A DNA stretch of 40,133 bases from NCBI GenBank assembly GCA_964489135.1, contig CAZAXK010000004.1:1-40133 (forward strand). Reading direction: 5' to 3'. Within the stretch, counting starts at the first letter, position 1. The number at the start of each line of letters is the position of its first letter. The notes under the pieces are model-generated. The model saw only the letters and a program-made list of their open reading frames with translations. It ran no database searches and was not told the origin of the DNA. Positions 2,686-30,880 of this stretch are shown here, piece by piece. The stretch is from an uncultured Candidatus Saccharibacteria bacterium (GTDB taxonomy: Bacteria; Patescibacteriota; Minisyncoccia; Phycocordibacterales; WO2-35-19). A program made the position numbers and the translations under genes.

Positions 2686-2716
2686 TGGAATATCTTTATA
2701 AGTGACAATTATCACT

Positions 2717-3214
2717 ATGAGTATTGTTATGGATATTTTGGAGCTAGCGTGGAATACAAAACTGAATTACAAGGGTATTCCAGTTAACCTATTTGGGGTT
2801 CCGAGGCTTCGAGCCGGCAAAAAGCCCTGCTCACAAACAACCTTTAACAGAACAGTACTAAGAATGAAGACAAAAGGATACTTGGAGATCATTGACGATA
2901 GATGGCAACTCACAGAATACGGTAAGAAATTCTATGAGAACCGCCAAAAATTGAGAACCAGATTTAGTTCCCCTTTTCCACCCAATGCGACAAAAAATCT
3001 TCTCGTCATATTCGACATTCCTGAAACTAAAAGAAACGAGAGAAATTGGTTACGGTGGCATCTAAAGAATTTTCAATACATTATGCTCCAACAAAGCGTT
3101 TGGCTAGGTCCGAGTCCACTACCAACCAAATTTCGAGAACACCTGAAGAATTTTAAGCTAGACAAATGTATAAAAACTTTCAAGCTCGCCAAGCCTTACC
3201 AATCCAAGGGTTAA
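2717..3214 (+). CDS. PaaX-like protein: N-terminal winged-helix plus Cas2/VapD-like ferredoxin-fold domain
   Basis: wHTH-like TFNRTVLRMKTKGYLEIIDDRWQLTEYGKK, then LLVIFDIPETKRNERNWLRWHLKNFQYIMLQQSVW (Cas2-like FDIP...QxSV). Alternative GTG start at 2702. Confidence 0.8.
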   Translation: MSIVMDILELAWNTKLNYKGIPVNLFGVPRLRAGKKPCSQTTFNRTVLRMKTKGYLEIIDDRWQLTEYGKKFYENRQKLRTRFSSPFPPNATKNLLVIFDIPETKRNERNWLRWHLKNFQYIMLQQSVWLGPSPLPTKFREHLKNFKLDKCIKTFKLAKPYQSKG

Positions 3215-3248
3215 TGCGACAAATCTGACGGCCGTCAGATTTGTCGCA
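3215..3248. repeat. Perfect 34-bp palindrome, copy 2 (begins at the first base after the stop codon)
   Basis: TGCGACAAATCTGACGG|CCGTCAGATTTGTCGCA, exact reverse-complement symmetry. Confidence 0.95.
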
Positions 3249-3267
3249 AAATGATCAACATAAAAAA

Positions 3268-16205: not shown

Positions 16206-17429
16206 TCAATTATACCCCAAGTATTTTTCGAGTGCGAGAATAGCACTCTCGGCACTCTCCGCATTCATGAGCTCTTCTTTCAAATCGTGGACATCGGGTA
16301 GACCAGAAAGATAAGACTTGAAATGCTTCTTCATCACCGCAAAGCTTTTTACTTTACCGAGGTTTTGGTCAAAGAGTTTGATGTGGGCAAGAAGGGCCTT
16401 GAGTTTCAGTTGTGGATCGATATTATCCGACTTCGCTAAAAGCTTCGCCGGATGCTCAATTTGGCTACTCTGCTTTGCAGTGGCCAAATTGGCGAACAAA
16501 AAGGGGTTGCCAAATATCGCGCGGCCGAGCATCACCCCATCACAGCCAGTTGCTTCAGCTTTGGCATAGGCATCGGCCACACTGTCAACATCGCCATTGC
16601 CGAAGATCAAAGTAGCCCCTCCCCCTACCCCCTCCCCAAAAGGGAGGGTATTTCGAATCTCAACCGCTTCCTTGATCCTTTCCCACCGCGCCGGCACCTT
16701 GGACATCTCCTTGCGTGTGCGGGCATGGATGGTGATGACCGCTGGCTCTTCGGCCAAAAGCTCTGGTAACCACCCGCCCATAGTTCCATCTGGTCGGGCA
16801 GGCCCTTCTAGCTCATCTTTGTTGTAGCCAAGACGGGTTTTTACCGACACAGGTATCGCTTCTTTTCCCTGCTCCTTTGCATACTCTTCTACTCCCTCTT
16901 TGGCTGCACGTATCACTTCCCTTGCGAGCCGCGGATTTTTGATCATCGCCGCACCCGCGCCCTGCTTCTCGATACTTTTGTCCGGACAACCCATGTTGAT
17001 ATCGAGCCCATCGAACCCCAAGCTCGCGACGAGATACGCTGCCTTGCGCATATTCTCCGGTCGAGAACCGAAAAGCTGGGCCACGATCGGCCTCTCAATT
17101 TCGCTGTATTCCAAATCTTTGAGCAACTTTTTCTTGCCTTCCTCGTGCGCAAGCACCAACCCGTCGGCACTGACAAATTCCGTCCACGTGACATAACTAT
17201 TAATACGTTCTCGAGATACTTCTCCGAGCGGGCCTTGCGCAGGCCGACTGGGCCGAGCAGAGGAATTTTCTAGCAAGAAAATATCCGTGCCAAGCGAGGA
17301 GAACGTATCGAGAGAATTATTAGAGCAACTCGCGATGACACGCCTGAAGGCCGAGTCGGTAACGTCGGCCATCGGTGCAAGACAAAGTATCGGCTTTTCT
17401 ATTTTTGACCAAAATCCTAAATTAACCAT
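16206..17429 (-). CDS. dus: tRNA-dihydrouridine synthase (Dus family) carrying four repeat-derived insertions
   Basis: LAPMADVTD, TEFVSADGL, AQLFGS, DINMGCP, PVSVKTRLG, TIHART, GNGDV, DGVMLGRA, MKKHFKSY. Confidence 0.95.
   Translation of the reverse strand: MVNLGFWSKIEKPILCLAPMADVTDSAFRRVIASCSNNSLDTFSSLGTDIFLLENSSARPSRPAQGPLGEVSRERINSYVTWTEFVSADGLVLAHEEGKKKLLKDLEYSEIERPIVAQLFGSRPENMRKAAYLVASLGFDGLDINMGCPDKSIEKQGAGAAMIKNPRLAREVIRAAKEGVEEYAKEQGKEAIPVSVKTRLGYNKDELEGPARPDGTMGGWLPELLAEEPAVITIHARTRKEMSKVPARWERIKEAVEIRNTLPFGEGVGGGATLIFGNGDVDSVADAYAKAEATGCDGVMLGRAIFGNPFLFANLATAKQSSQIEHPAKLLAKSDNIDPQLKLKALLAHIKLFDQNLGKVKSFAVMKKHFKSYLSGLPDVHDLKEELMNAESAESAILALEKYLGYN
16425..16453. repeat. REP-like insert 4 in dus
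   Basis: Minus strand atccggcgaagcttttagcgaagtcggat (HPAKLLAKSD); resembles 13938-13965. Confidence 0.65.
16616..16648. repeat. REP-like insert 3 in dus (C-rich/G-rich hairpin type)
   Basis: cccctccccctaccccctccccaaaagggaggg (LPFGEGVGGG); resembles the dprA insert at 23332-23365. Confidence 0.7.
16773..16802. repeat. REP-like insert 2 in dus (30 bp)
   Basis: Minus strand cctgcccgaccagatggaactatgggcggg (PARPDGTMG); same ends as 13612-13646. Confidence 0.7.
17203..17308. mobile_element. MITE-like element insert 1 in dus
   Basis: 10-bp perfect inverted arms atacgttctc/gagaacgtat; 31-bp core 17260-17290 identical to 30823-30853. Confidence 0.75.
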
Positions 17430-22656: not shown

Positions 22657-23562
22657 ATGTCTTATAAAATAGAGACGCTAAATAAACCCGACTGGCCTCC
22701 TCTCCTCGCTCAAATACCTGATCCGCCAAAAAAGCTTTGCTTCGCGGGCCAAGTACCTGATTATGAAAGAAAATTTCTTTGCGTCGTCGGTTCGCGCAAA
22801 TATTCTGGCTATGGCAAAGAAGCCACGAGTGCGCTTATCGCCGACCTGCGTGGATTCCCCATAACGATCGTGTCTGGGCTCGCACTCGGCATCGACTCAA
22901 TCGCTCACCGTCTTGCGATACAAAACAACTTGCCTACGATCGCCGTGCCTGGGAGTGGGCTCTCACCAAACGTTCTCCACCCCGCAAGTCATGCACAACT
23001 CGCCGAAGAAATAGTCGAGAGCGGAGGCACTCTTCTCTCCGAATATGAGCCCGACTTCAAGGCGACCCAATGGAGCTTCCCTCAGCGCAACCGCATCATG
23101 GCCGGCATGTGCGACGCCACTCTTATAATAGAAGCTGAGCAAAAGTCGGGCACCATGATTACAGCCAAGCTCACCACCGAATACAACCGAGAATTGCTCT
23201 GCGTTCCCGGAAGCATATTCAACCCGATGTCGGAGGGGCCTAATATGTTCCTGCGACTCGGGGCGACATTGGTGCGAAGCGGAGATGATATTTTGGAAGC
23301 ATTGGGAGTGGGGAAATTGGATTTCCCCACAACCCCACCCCTTACCCCTCCCCAAAGGGGAGGGGCTCAAGCCACCCACACCGACTGTTCGGAGAAAGAA
23401 TTGCTAATCTTGCAATTGCTCGAGAGTCCAAAAGAAAAGAGCGAGTTGATAAGAGAAGCGAGCGCACAAAATCTTTCAATTTCCGAAATCCAGACCACCC
23501 TTACCCTCCTCGAACTCAAGGGGCATATCGAAGAAAAGCTTGGGCAGATACGACGCACATAA
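22657..23562 (+). CDS. dprA: DNA processing protein DprA
   Basis: VVGSRK, IVSGLALGIDSIAH, FPQRNRIMAG, SGTMITA, VPGSIF, C-terminal winged helix. Confidence 0.96.
   Translation: MSYKIETLNKPDWPPLLAQIPDPPKKLCFAGQVPDYERKFLCVVGSRKYSGYGKEATSALIADLRGFPITIVSGLALGIDSIAHRLAIQNNLPTIAVPGSGLSPNVLHPASHAQLAEEIVESGGTLLSEYEPDFKATQWSFPQRNRIMAGMCDATLIIEAEQKSGTMITAKLTTEYNRELLCVPGSIFNPMSEGPNMFLRLGATLVRSGDDILEALGVGKLDFPTTPPLTPPQRGGAQATHTDCSEKELLILQLLESPKEKSELIREASAQNLSISEIQTTLTLLELKGHIEEKLGQIRRT
23332..23365. repeat. REP-like hairpin inside the dprA linker
   Basis: cccctcccc-aaa-ggggagggg perfect 9-bp stem; encodes TPPLTPPQRGG. Confidence 0.7.
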
Positions 23563-29483: not shown

Positions 29484-29549
29484 TGTCCCGCCATAGCCTT
29501 TTTTGCGACGGCGGACATGTCCCGCCAAAGCTTTATGCGTAGGCGGACA
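29484..29549. repeat. Two tandem REP-like palindromes just 5' of tRNA-Leu
   Basis: tgtcccgcc...ggcggaca twice (29484-29517, 29518-29549). Confidence 0.75.
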
Positions 29550-29609: not shown

Positions 29610-30518
29610 ATGCAAAAACCTAAAATCATTGTAATACTAGGGCCGACATCTAGCGGTAAAAGCGACTTGGCGGTAAAGCTCGCTCAAAAGTTTAACGGGG
29701 AAGTAATATCCGCTGACTCTAGGCAAGTATACAAGGGTCTCAATATTGGCACGGGCAAGATCACCAAAAAGGAAATGAAGGGGGTGAAGCATCATCTGCT
29801 CGATATCGCGAACCCACGCAAAAAATTTACCGTTTCCGATTTTGTGAAAGCGACAAATTCGACGGTCGTCAAAATTGTCGCCAGAGGTAAAATACCTATT
29901 CTCTGCGGAGGTACTGCATTTTATATCGACGCTCTGCTCGGCGATAGGCAGATCCCCGAGGTTCCGATAAATGAAAAGTTGCGGGCAAAGCTTGAAAGGA
30001 AAAGTGTCGAGGAACTTTTCGCTATACTTTCTGACCTCGATCCAGAGAGAGCTAAAAGCATCGATAGGCAAAATCCTAGGCGATTGGTGCGAGCTATTGA
30101 AATATGCAAAGCACTAGGAAGTGTCCCAAAACAAATCGCAAGTTCACAATCAGACTTTCGAAACAAATTCGAAATTCTCAAAATCGGAACTAAAATCGAC
30201 GAGGCGGAATTAAGAAATCGGATTAACAAAAGATTAGAAAAGAGACTCAAACAAGGAATGATCGCCGAAGCCAAAGGGCTTCATGCGCGAGGACTCACCT
30301 ATAAACGGATGCGTGAGCTAGGACTAGAGTACGGGGCTCTGGCTGATCTGCTAGAAAACAAAATAACCAAAGAGGAGATGGTCGCAAGATTGCAGAAAGA
30401 GATCTGGCACTACGCCAAGCGCCAGATGACTTGGTGGAAAAAAGACCAAGAAATTCTCTGGATCAAACCATCCCCCACCATCGCTTCCCAAATAATTAAA
30501 GAGTTTTTGCGAAGCTAA
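29610..30518 (+). CDS. miaA: tRNA dimethylallyltransferase
   Basis: ILGPTSSGKS, ISADSRQVY, HHLLD, GGTAFY, RRLVRAIE, YAKRQMTW. Confidence 0.97.
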   Translation: MQKPKIIVILGPTSSGKSDLAVKLAQKFNGEVISADSRQVYKGLNIGTGKITKKEMKGVKHHLLDIANPRKKFTVSDFVKATNSTVVKIVARGKIPILCGGTAFYIDALLGDRQIPEVPINEKLRAKLERKSVEELFAILSDLDPERAKSIDRQNPRRLVRAIEICKALGSVPKQIASSQSDFRNKFEILKIGTKIDEAELRNRINKRLEKRLKQGMIAEAKGLHARGLTYKRMRELGLEYGALADLLENKITKEEMVARLQKEIWHYAKRQMTWWKKDQEILWIKPSPTIASQIIKEFLRS

Positions 30519-30523
30519 CGAGA

Positions 30524-30676
30524 GCGGGCCCACGAGGATTCGGTCACGCATAATTTTCTGCTGAAAATTTGCTCGACCCCGGCTCGGCCCGTCGGCCTCC
30601 GCCTTTCTCATCCTCGTCAAACCACGCAATGATGCTTCGCGCAAATAGCTATTCAAAGCTATTTTTGCGAATCATT
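30524..30676 (-). mobile_element. tRNA-3'-associated miniature element (Trp copy) ending in a 19-bp direct repeat of the tRNA 3' end
   Basis: gcgggcccacgaggattcg at 30524-30542 and 30677-30695; inverted atcctcgt at 30610-30617; GCT-TTGAAT-AGC hairpin; core related to 17260-17290. Confidence 0.75.
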
Positions 30677-30677
30677 G

Positions 30678-30748
30678 CGGGCCCACGAGGATTCGAACCC
30701 CGGTCGCTCCTTTTGGAGAGGAGAATTCTACCACTGAACTATAGGCCC
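30678..30748 (-). tRNA. tRNA-Trp(CCA)
   Basis: GGGCCTA/TGGGCCC acceptor, CTCCT-CTCCAAA-AGGAG anticodon arm, G73; lies downstream of rpmG as in many bacteria. Confidence 0.95.
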
Positions 30749-30766
30749 AATACGTAAAATATACAC

Positions 30767-30880
30767 AAAAAAAATAGAATTGTCCTGTAAGCGAGCCTTG
30801 CGAGACTCGACGGAGCGAGCACGAGGAATTTTCTAGCAAGAAAATATCCGTGCGAGCGACAGGATAATTCTATTTTTTTG
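30767..30880. mobile_element. MITE-like element between rpmG and tRNA-Trp
   Basis: 21-bp inverted arms aaaaaaatagaattgtcctgt/acaggataattctattttttt with one mismatch; core 30823-30853 identical to the dus insert. Confidence 0.75.

Follow-up and report, generated by a model that had tools for sequence, protein, structure and literature searches.

The stretch of DNA analysed here (the window) comprises positions 1 to 40,133 of contig CAZAXK010000004.1 (assembly GCA_964489135.1; 40,133 nucleotides, nt) of an uncultured Candidatus Saccharibacteria bacterium. It contains a gene for a tRNA-dihydrouridine synthase (Dus) in which four hairpin-forming DNA inserts add about 80 residues to the encoded protein while leaving its frame open. 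One of the inserts is a copy of a branched palindromic repeat, here named element 1, which also occurs between genes of the window and in many other Patescibacteria. The features discussed are collected in Table 1.

An intact Dus gene with four in-frame inserts

The open reading frame (ORF), of 407 amino acids (aa), matches the Pfam Dus profile PF01207 with an E value of 2.3e-53, residues 17-396 corresponding to profile positions 2-298 of 311, and the structure of Thermotoga maritima Dus (1vhn) with an E value of 5.4e-21. When the window protein is aligned with 23 orthologs of 318-458 aa, the catalytic NMGCP motif at residues 145-149 (N145 M146 G147 C148 P149) is invariant, as are about 90 other columns, K197, H235 and R237 among them. 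The nearest matches carry the names Parcubacteria, Paceibacterota or Patescibacteria, and the gene order ClpB-like AAA+ protein / Dus / bPH_2 protein / PAP2 phosphatase is kept around the orthologs. An earlier interpretation made from the letters of the window (the sequence-only reading) had held that the frame and all Dus motifs, including the cysteine of NMGCP, survive the insertions, and this is borne out. Judged by its sequence, the gene, inserts included, is probably functional.

All four inserts coincide with gaps or breaks in the alignment to 1vhn, and the shortest Parcubacteria orthologs (318-330 aa) have none of them; orthologs that lack the repeats also lack the corresponding loops. 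Insert 1 adds about 32-40 codons and encodes approximately residues 39-74 (...SLDTFSSLGTDIFLLENSSARPSRPAQGPLGEVSRE...); its outer stem (P1) is formed by 17298-17316 pairing with 17208-17225, and its core spans 17221-17303. Insert 2 adds exactly 10 codons and is common only to the window Dus and its two nearest orthologs, P0002 and P0003. Insert 3, with the layout CCCTCCC-TTTT-GGGGAGGGGG-TA-GGGGGAGGGG, adds about 6-9 codons according to the ortholog alignment; where the 93%-identical ortholog of locus L001 has 17 nt of unrelated sequence, the window has a 35-nt segment and thereby gains 18 nt net. Insert 4 had been described as 29 nt long and is about twice as large as that, consisting of hairpin X (16454-16493) and the previously noticed hairpin Y (16425-16453), which contains two GCGAAG motifs. 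A comparison of the window with the Dus ortholog of locus L126 shows covariation in the inner stem of hairpin X; in L126, hairpin Y is half-deleted. An AlphaFold2 model of the protein (mean predicted local distance difference test score, pLDDT, of 70; predicted template modelling score of 0.73) puts every one of the four inserts between secondary-structure elements, either inside the barrel or on the way from it to the C-terminal helical domain, and predicts with low confidence the segments comprising residues 39-80 (pLDDT <50), about 200-219, 265-269 and 316-325.

Table 1. Positions of the Dus gene, its inserts and related features in the window
Feature	Position	Strand	Remarks
Dus (tRNA-dihydrouridine synthase) ORF	16206..17429	(-)	407 aa, intact; Pfam, 1vhn, ortholog alignment, conserved synteny
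Insert 1, element-1 copy (whole stem-loop)	17208..17316	(-)	covariance model R1 67.5 bits, E 3.7e-17; DNA fold z -3.3
Insert 2, 30-nt GC-stem hairpin	16773..16802	(-)	encodes GPARPDGTMG; ortholog alignment; fold z -1.4
Insert 3, C-tract/G-tract hairpin	16614..16648	(-)	G-rich strand read as PFGEGVGGGA; fold z -2.5
Insert 4, two adjacent hairpins	~16422..16493	(-)	20 extra codons; fold z -3.3
Intergenic element-1 copy, canonical	30768..30879	(-)	21-bp outer stem; just upstream of tRNA-Trp; covariance model 75.7 bits, E 1.6e-19; fold z -6.2
Third element-1 copy, minor subfamily	30531..30617	(+)	between miaA stop codon and tRNA-Trp; covariance model 43.2 bits, E 4e-10
tRNA-Trp (CCA)	30677..30748	(-)	element-1 copies on both sides
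19-nt direct repeat of tRNA-Trp 3' end	30524..30542	(+)	second copy 30677-30695
Family-3 hairpin in frame in DprA (ORF 22657-23562)	23332..23365	(+)	C-rich strand read as TTPPLTPPQRGGAQ
C-tract/G-tract hairpin directly 3' of DprA stop codon	23563..23594	(+)	family-3 layout, weak sequence similarity
GC-stem hairpin upstream of tRNA-Asn	13612..13646	(+)	only stem ends in common with insert 2

Relatives of the inserts in the window

The sequence-only reading had assigned a relative in the window to each of the four inserts. To assess these pairs, each insert was aligned locally to the window, with the Dus gene masked, and the scores were compared with those of 100 dinucleotide-preserving shuffles. 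By the shuffle comparison with which that reading had proposed to refute itself, the assignment held for two inserts: insert 1 scored 86 against 30790-30859 and insert 3 scored 44 against 23332-23364, with null maxima of 32 and 30, respectively, and 0 of 100 shuffles as high in either case. The best scores of inserts 2 and 4 (23 and 26) are at chance level, being equalled in 35 and 38 of the 100 shuffles, and the stretches that gave them are not the partners that had been named. An unbiased repeat search of the window recovered pair 1 (64 nt, 78% identical), including the 31-nt exact core at 30823-30853 that had been reported, and pair 3 (32 nt, 84%), and did not recover pairs 2 or 4.

The proposed likeness of the ends of insert 2 to 13612-13646 is limited to the stem ends, and that of insert 4 to 13938-13965 and 29484-29549 does not rise above the shuffles in an alignment. 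Structure-aware motifs do tie insert 2 to 13612-13646 (stem ends CCTGCCCGA...GGGCGGG) and insert 4 to 13938-13965 and 29529-29542 (AGCTTT[T]A[T]GCG[AT]AG); these motifs were written after the sequences had been seen and hence are only suggestive leads. Of the two relatives proposed for insert 3, the hairpin within DprA is the one found by the alignment, and the one behind the DprA stop codon shares its layout.

Element 1 is a covarying, branched repeat of Patescibacteria

A covariance model (R1) built from the element-1 alignment finds three copies in the window, namely insert 1, the canonical intergenic copy and a diverged copy at 30531-30617 that had been missed before. The model also detects every copy in the Dus orthologs, whose DNA carries the core at two different Dus sites in different genomes. 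Species-representative genomes were scanned with a degenerate 28-nt core pattern containing six free positions. The pattern matches at least 119 stretches, and all the matches listed are in Patescibacteria: Nomura-, Taylor-, Zambryski-, Wildermuth- and Lloydbacteria, Paceibacterota, Minisyncoccia and many metagenome-assembled genomes labelled Saccharibacteria. The core is conserved over many Patescibacteria orders. The pattern has no match in 2.9 million viral contigs, and a viral vector was rejected on this ground.

The anatomy of element 1 was drawn from an alignment of 78 copies. In order, it consists of one arm of P1, the heptamer CACGGAT, hairpin A (ATTTnnn-TGCT-n'n'n'AAAT, extended by GGA/TCC), the extended hairpin B (CGTGC-TC-GCGC-CGTC-GCGC-TC-GCAAG), one base and the other arm of P1. 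The conserved core of about 58 nt (CACGGAT-[ATTTnnn TGCT n'n'n'AAAT]-TCCT-[CGTGC..GCGC CGTC GCGC..GCAAG]) forms a three-way junction; for the element as a whole, the median length is 103 nt. The length of P1 lies between 5 and more than 40 bp (median 18), and its sequence is hypervariable between copies, with the pairing kept; the six free positions of the scan pattern are almost always the complementary triplets of hairpin A. Standard pairs occupy 91.1% of the pair cells, versus 39-55% when the partners are slid by 1-3 columns, and the covariation score is 0.506, versus at most 0.138. Two-sided changes are present at 13 of 13 P1 pairs, at all 4 top pairs and 3 of the 4 lower pairs of hairpin B, and at the 3 free pairs of hairpin A.

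No element-1 family was found in Rfam (Rfam 15) at either gathering or permissive thresholds: only tRNAs reach the gathering score, the best permissive match has 21 bits versus a cut-off of 70, and no intron or ribozyme family is matched. As to protein searches, an exhaustive phmmer run with the 30-aa window peptide returned 13 weak multi-stretch matches that resemble repeat proteins more than element copies, and a 42-aa profile of the element-1 peptide gave 2 matches among 63 candidates; both were uninformative on in-frame hosts.

Some copies (L025, L039, L040, L034 and L111) contain tens of extra nucleotides inside hairpin B, such as CCTTACAGGGACAGTACACCTTTCACATTTTGA... in L039 and L025, which suggests a further repeat family that nests in element 1. 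At L050:3333-5410, an ABC-transporter gene is enclosed by two inverted copies that have one outer stem in common and lie about 1.9 kb from each other; this stem variant recurs in L107 and L065.

Most copies follow stop codons, and some are read through inside genes

The surroundings of 123 copies were classified. Long frames on both sides are absent for 109 of them, 9 are read through in frame, and 5 have long open frames on both sides without read-through. Most copies lie just 3' of stop codons, and about 8% are unambiguously inside genes. SecA, TGT, MnmA, DnaE and Dus serve as in-frame hosts, as do TsaD and PheT, each of these last two in two genomes and at the same site; in every host, Pfam matches span or flank the insert. 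The coding copies use both orientations and at least 5 of the 6 frames. An intron-like interruption was considered for the five copies without read-through and rejected, since all are ordinary junctions of adjacent genes (L31/RF1, FtsZ/TrxB-like, PolA/HolA-like and NifS/NifU) with the copy in the spacer; here the outer stem begins 2-7 nt from the upstream stop codon. Not one of the 123 copies was found to break a gene by stops or a frameshift.

No protein family recurs near the copies beyond 7 of the 119 listed loci, and those that recur are all housekeeping families. Judged by eye, they include IleRS, FtsK, L25, a PilB-type ATPase, FtsA, RF1 and a UvrD-like helicase, as well as HisRS, PolA, an ABC transporter, L19, a MurF-like ligase and a PBP2-like protein. 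Element 1 is dispersed and would be non-autonomous.

The pairing of the outer stem is kept, without strand bias

Where the direction of transcription could be assigned, 25 copies are in sense and 24 in antisense orientation, and P1 on the transcribed strand contains 41 G.U versus 37 A.C pairs (p = 0.73). In the absence of an orientation bias and of a G.U/A.C asymmetry, an oriented RNA function was rejected, and we read the constraint as one on the DNA, or at least as strand-symmetric. Taken together with the absence of interrupted genes, these sequence comparisons point to a non-autonomous element that would act at the DNA level and whose in-gene copies would be translated as loops.

Six orthologs carry element 1 at Dus site 1, and their inner flanks have shared derived features, which argues for one ancestral insertion. 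The outer arms at this site are only about 40-60% identical between genes, except in the close pairs window-L001 and L003-L123, while arms of one and the same gene match each other by 79-100% complementarity over 13-24 nt (for example, 13/13 in L124 and 21/22 in L125). The encoded peptides differ freely (SLDTFSS, NTSFS, RKVSS, SRKTFSS). Hairpin A of L125 retains the TGCT loop but has had each of its seven pairs exchanged, giving AAAAGCC/GGCTTTT, and the site-3 copies in L126 and L127 show paired changes of the same kind. Between the window and L001, third-position divergence is 3.7-5.7% in insert 1 versus 20% in the rest of the gene (p ~0.04); in inserts 2 and 4 it does not differ from the background. 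Decay is also seen: L002 keeps only the 3' half of element 1 at site 1, and L127 has a 12-nt palindrome (ATTCTCGAGAAT) at an otherwise empty element-1 site. The stem could be kept up by selection for the structure, be it on behalf of the element or of the host, or by correction of quasi-palindromes through template switching.

With regard to the origin of the stem, the inner P1 arm agrees at 13 or more of its 16 nt in 23 pairs of copies, versus 0 of 4656 control pairs, and only 4 of the 23 share their flanks. Inner arms that are alike at sites with different flanks indicate that at least the inner stem travels to non-orthologous sites. The outer part of P1 would, on this evidence, diverge or grow after insertion. 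For the major family, the possibility that the outer stem is an inverted copy of local host sequence was rejected because related inner stems occur at non-orthologous loci; it is also countered by the stems in MnmA and Dus, which consist of non-native codons.

A minor subfamily is linked to tRNA genes

The third copy of the window belongs to a minor subfamily, the 3' half of which reads ...TCCGCGACCCCGCCTCG...CCGGCTTTC. The core of this copy is abutted by the 30524-30542 repeat of the tRNA-Trp 3' end, which supplies one arm of its outer stem; the other repeat, at 30677-30695, runs from the T-loop to the discriminator base of tRNA-Trp. Duplicates of a tRNA 3' end beside minor copies are present in the window (Trp, 19 nt), L018 (Ser, 19 nt), L083 (Val, 20 nt), L093 (Gly, 18 nt) and L076 (Met, 13 nt), and at these five different tRNAs the junction always follows ...TTCG in the T-loop. 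Six of the 12 minor-subfamily copies lie within 150 nt of a tRNA gene, versus about 2% expected for random placement and 4 of the 111 copies of the major family. Only about 90-200 nt separate the tRNA-end repeats, and no integrase is encoded there. The duplicated tRNA 3' end would be the clearest footprint of a DNA insertion event in these sequences, and for this subfamily a local-copy origin of the outer stem is plausible.

Intergenic hairpins of the window of other kinds also cluster at tRNA genes: the tandem GC-stem hairpins at 29484-29549 abut tRNA-Leu, and the hairpin at 13612-13646 precedes tRNA-Asn.

The families of inserts 2 to 4 and further hairpins

The family of insert 3 (family 3) consists of C-tract/G-tract hairpins with the consensus CCCCCTCTCC-loop-GGAGAGGGGG-yAGGGGGTGAGGT. 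Members stand at the same Dus site in L003, L002 and L126, where they encode PSPLQGEGAGGEV. The DprA hairpin lies in the linker (residues 225-236) after the DNA_processg_A domain and is read from the strand opposite to that read in Dus. The proposal that Parcubacteria carry several families of in-frame palindromes that add loops to proteins is supported by these data, element 1 being found in seven gene families and the insert-3 family in Dus and DprA. For insert 2, pairing is better in L002 (CCTGCCCGAA-CAGAC-GGTA-GTCTG-GGGCGGG), and the lineage of the window shows decay; 'PARPD...GGW' segments like it are encoded in the TsaD gene of L034.

In the Dus ortholog P0005 (L126:1700-1950), a CCTGCC...GGCAGG hairpin is nested in the loop of a C-tract/G-tract hairpin, and these nested repeats adjoin an element-1 copy and a further CCCCCTCTTAATTTAAGAGGGGG hairpin, so that a single Dus site has gained about 80 aa. 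The window also contains a 32-nt palindrome family (GACAAATnTGACGGCCGTCAnATTTGTCGC), at 2637-2668, 3218-3249 and 29852-29883. The first two members bracket a small ORF (2702-3214) with a PaaX_M/Cas2-like domain; the third, in miaA, was considered as an in-frame insert and rejected, as the match to the IPPT domain runs on without a break. In the window there are 22 occurrences of the heptamer GCGAAGC, versus a mean of 9 and a maximum of 18 in dinucleotide shuffles, and the heptamer is enriched in other Patescibacteria loci too (139 versus 91). In single-stranded DNA, GCGAAGC forms a very stable mini-hairpin.

Dus as a permissive host

The Dus orthologs span 318-502 aa and have at least eight variable sites, while on the same contigs the lengths of bPH_2 (182-183 aa), PAP2 (166-183 aa) and the ClpB-like protein (803-805 aa) are kept. 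Dus is therefore unusually permissive in this clade. Its description as a hotspot in the sequence-only reading is justified in this clade-specific sense and does not extend to a general targeting, since in the unbiased scan dus is found at only 1 of the 119 listed loci, with the copy upstream of the start codon. At L030:5765-5905, an element-1 copy lies directly upstream of the dus start, and its outer stem (ATAGCTCTTCTCG...) resembles those of the site-1 coding copies. The TsaD gene of L034 contains three different in-frame hairpin inserts, namely element 1 (antisense), KKPARPD...GGW (insert-2-like) and PDPSSKRRGG (family-3-like), which shows that genes with multiple inserts are not unique to Dus.

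Discussion

The reading that we favour, with a probability of roughly 60%, is that non-autonomous palindromic repeats acting at the DNA level have inserted in Dus, and that in-gene copies are translated as loops. Dus would in that case have accumulated four frame-preserving, hairpin-forming insertions in surface loops, insert 1 being a copy of a non-autonomous, DNA-level repeat family of Patescibacteria. A trans-acting activity would recognise the structure and copy whole stem-loops to new sites, most of which would be short spacers right after stop codons. Copies landing in genes would persist only if they are a multiple of three bases long, free of stops in whichever orientation they are read, and situated in a tolerated loop, and they would be translated as disordered loops. 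Insert 3 would represent the same phenomenon in a second family, and inserts 2 and 4 may be older or private hairpin insertions of the same style. Signs of insertion or loss are the two Dus sites occupied by element 1, the decayed half-copy of L002 and the short palindrome of L127.

Several observations weigh against this reading. The major family has no target-site duplication and no conserved terminal repeats. No transposase lies within 2.5 kb of the 119 listed copies and no recombinase recurs beside them, a result that concerns the copy neighbourhoods only, and the approach of guilt by association gave no mobilising gene because there is neither a recurrent neighbour nor a transposase near the copies; we therefore infer mobility from the distribution of the copies only. 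It should be noted that the fixed core pattern favours well-preserved copies and in this way biases the sample. Finally, the compensatory changes in P1 and hairpin A, together with the low third-position divergence, hint at a constraint beyond selfish persistence, which would be host function or repeated homogenisation.

The latter point would also fit the view that element 1 is a nucleic-acid structure with a function for the host, which is kept by selection and of which the coding copies are tolerated by-products; it might process or stabilise mRNA, be an RNase III-type site that lies between cistrons, or be a structural or binding site on DNA. We consider this view unlikely, even though the core is conserved over many Patescibacteria orders, the pairing of P1 and hairpin A is preserved by compensatory changes in orthologous coding copies, third-position divergence is lowered in insert 1, and in operons, NifS-NifU and L31-RF1 for instance, intergenic copies begin 2-7 nt behind the upstream stop codon. 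Orientation bias and an excess of G.U over A.C, both to be expected of an RNA with conserved loops, are not seen, and there is no Rfam match; moreover, copies decay, as in L002, and are missing from many orthologs. A strand-symmetric role at the DNA level would be compatible with the lack of orientation bias. Far less probable still is that the in-gene copies are intervening sequences that are removed from the mRNA or bypassed by the ribosome, so that the protein is made without the loops. Intervening sequences have been reported in the rRNA genes of this phylum, and the stable stem-loop of element 1 brings its two ends together; however, every in-gene copy is stop-free and preserves the frame, no copy splits a gene (the five candidates being gene-spacer-gene junctions), both orientations occur in genes, and no intron or ribozyme family is matched.

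For inserts 2 and 4, and perhaps insert 3, a local origin deserves serious consideration, although we do not regard it as the likelier account: these inserts may be quasi-palindromes created and extended by template switching or slippage during replication in a permissive loop, their resemblance to other sequences being compositional. Inserts 2 and 4 are no more similar to the partners named for them than chance allows; insert 2, which only three close orthologs have, is decaying and shows no extra conservation; in insert 4, hairpin X has a left arm that overlaps with native Ala-Asn codons; and compared with L001, insert 3 has replaced other sequence instead of being cleanly inserted. Conversely, GC-stem hairpins of the insert-2 type occur in other Patescibacteria loci (9 versus 0.4 in shuffles, with a pattern defined post hoc) and in other proteins (KKPARPD...GGW in the TsaD of L034), as well as nested in the Dus hairpin of L126, and the similarity of insert 3 to the DprA copy, and to those of Dus orthologs, is significant.

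Beyond what the sequence-only reading had proposed, the strongest new points are the phylum-wide occurrence of a branched repeat with a stem of free sequence, the preservation of this stem in essential genes, and the subfamily linked to tRNA T-loops. It is conceivable, although we hold it to be doubtful, that element 1 constitutes a new class of prokaryotic repeat, either a branched DNA module that is copied whole by an enzyme of Patescibacteria or a host-function module that is selected even within ORFs. Equally tentative parts of this reading are that the outer stem may take any sequence, its pairing being actively upheld even in essential genes, and that one subfamily targets tRNA T-loops and duplicates the 3' end of the tRNA.

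If the favoured reading of DNA-level insertion is correct, the streamlined genomes of Patescibacteria, which are among the smallest of bacteria, carry at least two repeat families that enter essential genes, including those for SecA, DnaE, an aminoacyl-tRNA synthetase and tRNA modification. They would provide a second independent natural system, besides Rickettsia, in which selfish palindromes create protein loops, and the inserts would explain much of the length variation among orthologs of the candidate phyla radiation (CPR), as in Dus (318-502 aa). The covariance model lets annotators recognise element-1 segments; as insert segments are non-homologous insertions, they call for caution in CPR phylogenomics and structure prediction. 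The mechanistic question is which enzyme would recognise a branched DNA with a stem of free sequence, and how complementarity is kept inside coding DNA.

Comparison with known systems

A full-text literature search, with most subscription journals outside its coverage, returned no paper that ties such elements to Patescibacteria, CPR or Parcubacteria. Among known structures, the attC sites of integrons are recombination sites that are recognised as a folded single strand, vary in sequence with conserved pairing, and are tied to integron cassettes and the integrase IntI. Element 1 would resemble these sites in combining variable sequence with conserved pairing and differ from them in the arrangement, since attC keeps its outer R/L boxes and varies centrally and element 1 does the opposite; nothing of the integron-cassette/IntI kind was seen here. 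The minor subfamily, with its direct duplicate of the tRNA 3' end and its T-loop junction, is reminiscent of the attachment-site duplication of integrative elements in tRNA genes and of their integrase-less remnants such as cis-mobilizable elements (CIMEs), from which it differs in having only about 90-200 nt between the repeats, no integrase, and one core at five tRNAs.

MITEs, the miniature inverted-repeat transposable elements (Correia, ERIC, QMITE and others), are, like element 1, non-autonomous, hairpin-forming, about 100-200 bp long and occasionally fused in frame to ORFs. In contrast to element 1, they have conserved terminal inverted repeats and a target-site duplication derived from a parent insertion sequence. 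The boundaries of the major family show no consistent direct repeat, and the termini of element 1 are its most variable part: all 13 outer-stem positions of P1 show all pair types, and only the innermost few bp are semi-conserved. Repetitive extragenic palindromic (REP) sequences and bacterial interspersed mosaic elements (BIMEs) are described as structure-defined extragenic palindromes without target-site duplications, which are abundant 3' of genes and have covarying stems (PMC3733652). The system they form with RAYT (Y1/HUH) transposases shares with element 1 the definition by structure, the lack of target-site duplications, the location just downstream of genes and the covarying stems. REPs are, however, simple hairpins of 20-40 bp, tagged GTAG or CGTC at one end and rarely coding, whereas element 1 is about 100 nt long, branched and found in genes; its CGTC is the loop of hairpin B and not an end tag. 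No RAYT-like gene is present in the neighbourhoods of the element-1 copies, to which this search was confined.

The closest analogue in behaviour is the Rickettsia palindromic elements (RPEs). These are about 150 bp long and form ten families, with 44 integrations in unrelated R. conorii genes, and nearly half of the copies are in frame (PMC10969869). Like element 1, they are short palindromic repeats (~100-150 bp) of several families in a bacterium with a reduced genome, have no known mobilising enzyme, and are located between genes as well as in frame in unrelated housekeeping genes, at positions compatible with fold and function (PMC10969869). The corresponding traits are present here: a dispersed palindrome of 103 nt (median) that stands at no fewer than 119 places, at least two families, and in-frame hosts. 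The descriptions of RPEs nevertheless set element 1 apart: RPE copies encode a conserved peptide, whereas element 1 uses both orientations and at least 5 of 6 frames; nearly half of the RPE copies are in genes, versus about 8% for element 1; and element 1, in a different phylum, has a conserved three-way-junction core with a hypervariable outer stem. The earlier suggestion of an RPE equivalent in Parcubacteria thus fits the likeness in function and does not fit the architecture, namely the conserved core, the hypervariable outer stem and the many frames used. By the defining features of these groups, element 1 is not an RPE, a MITE or a REP.

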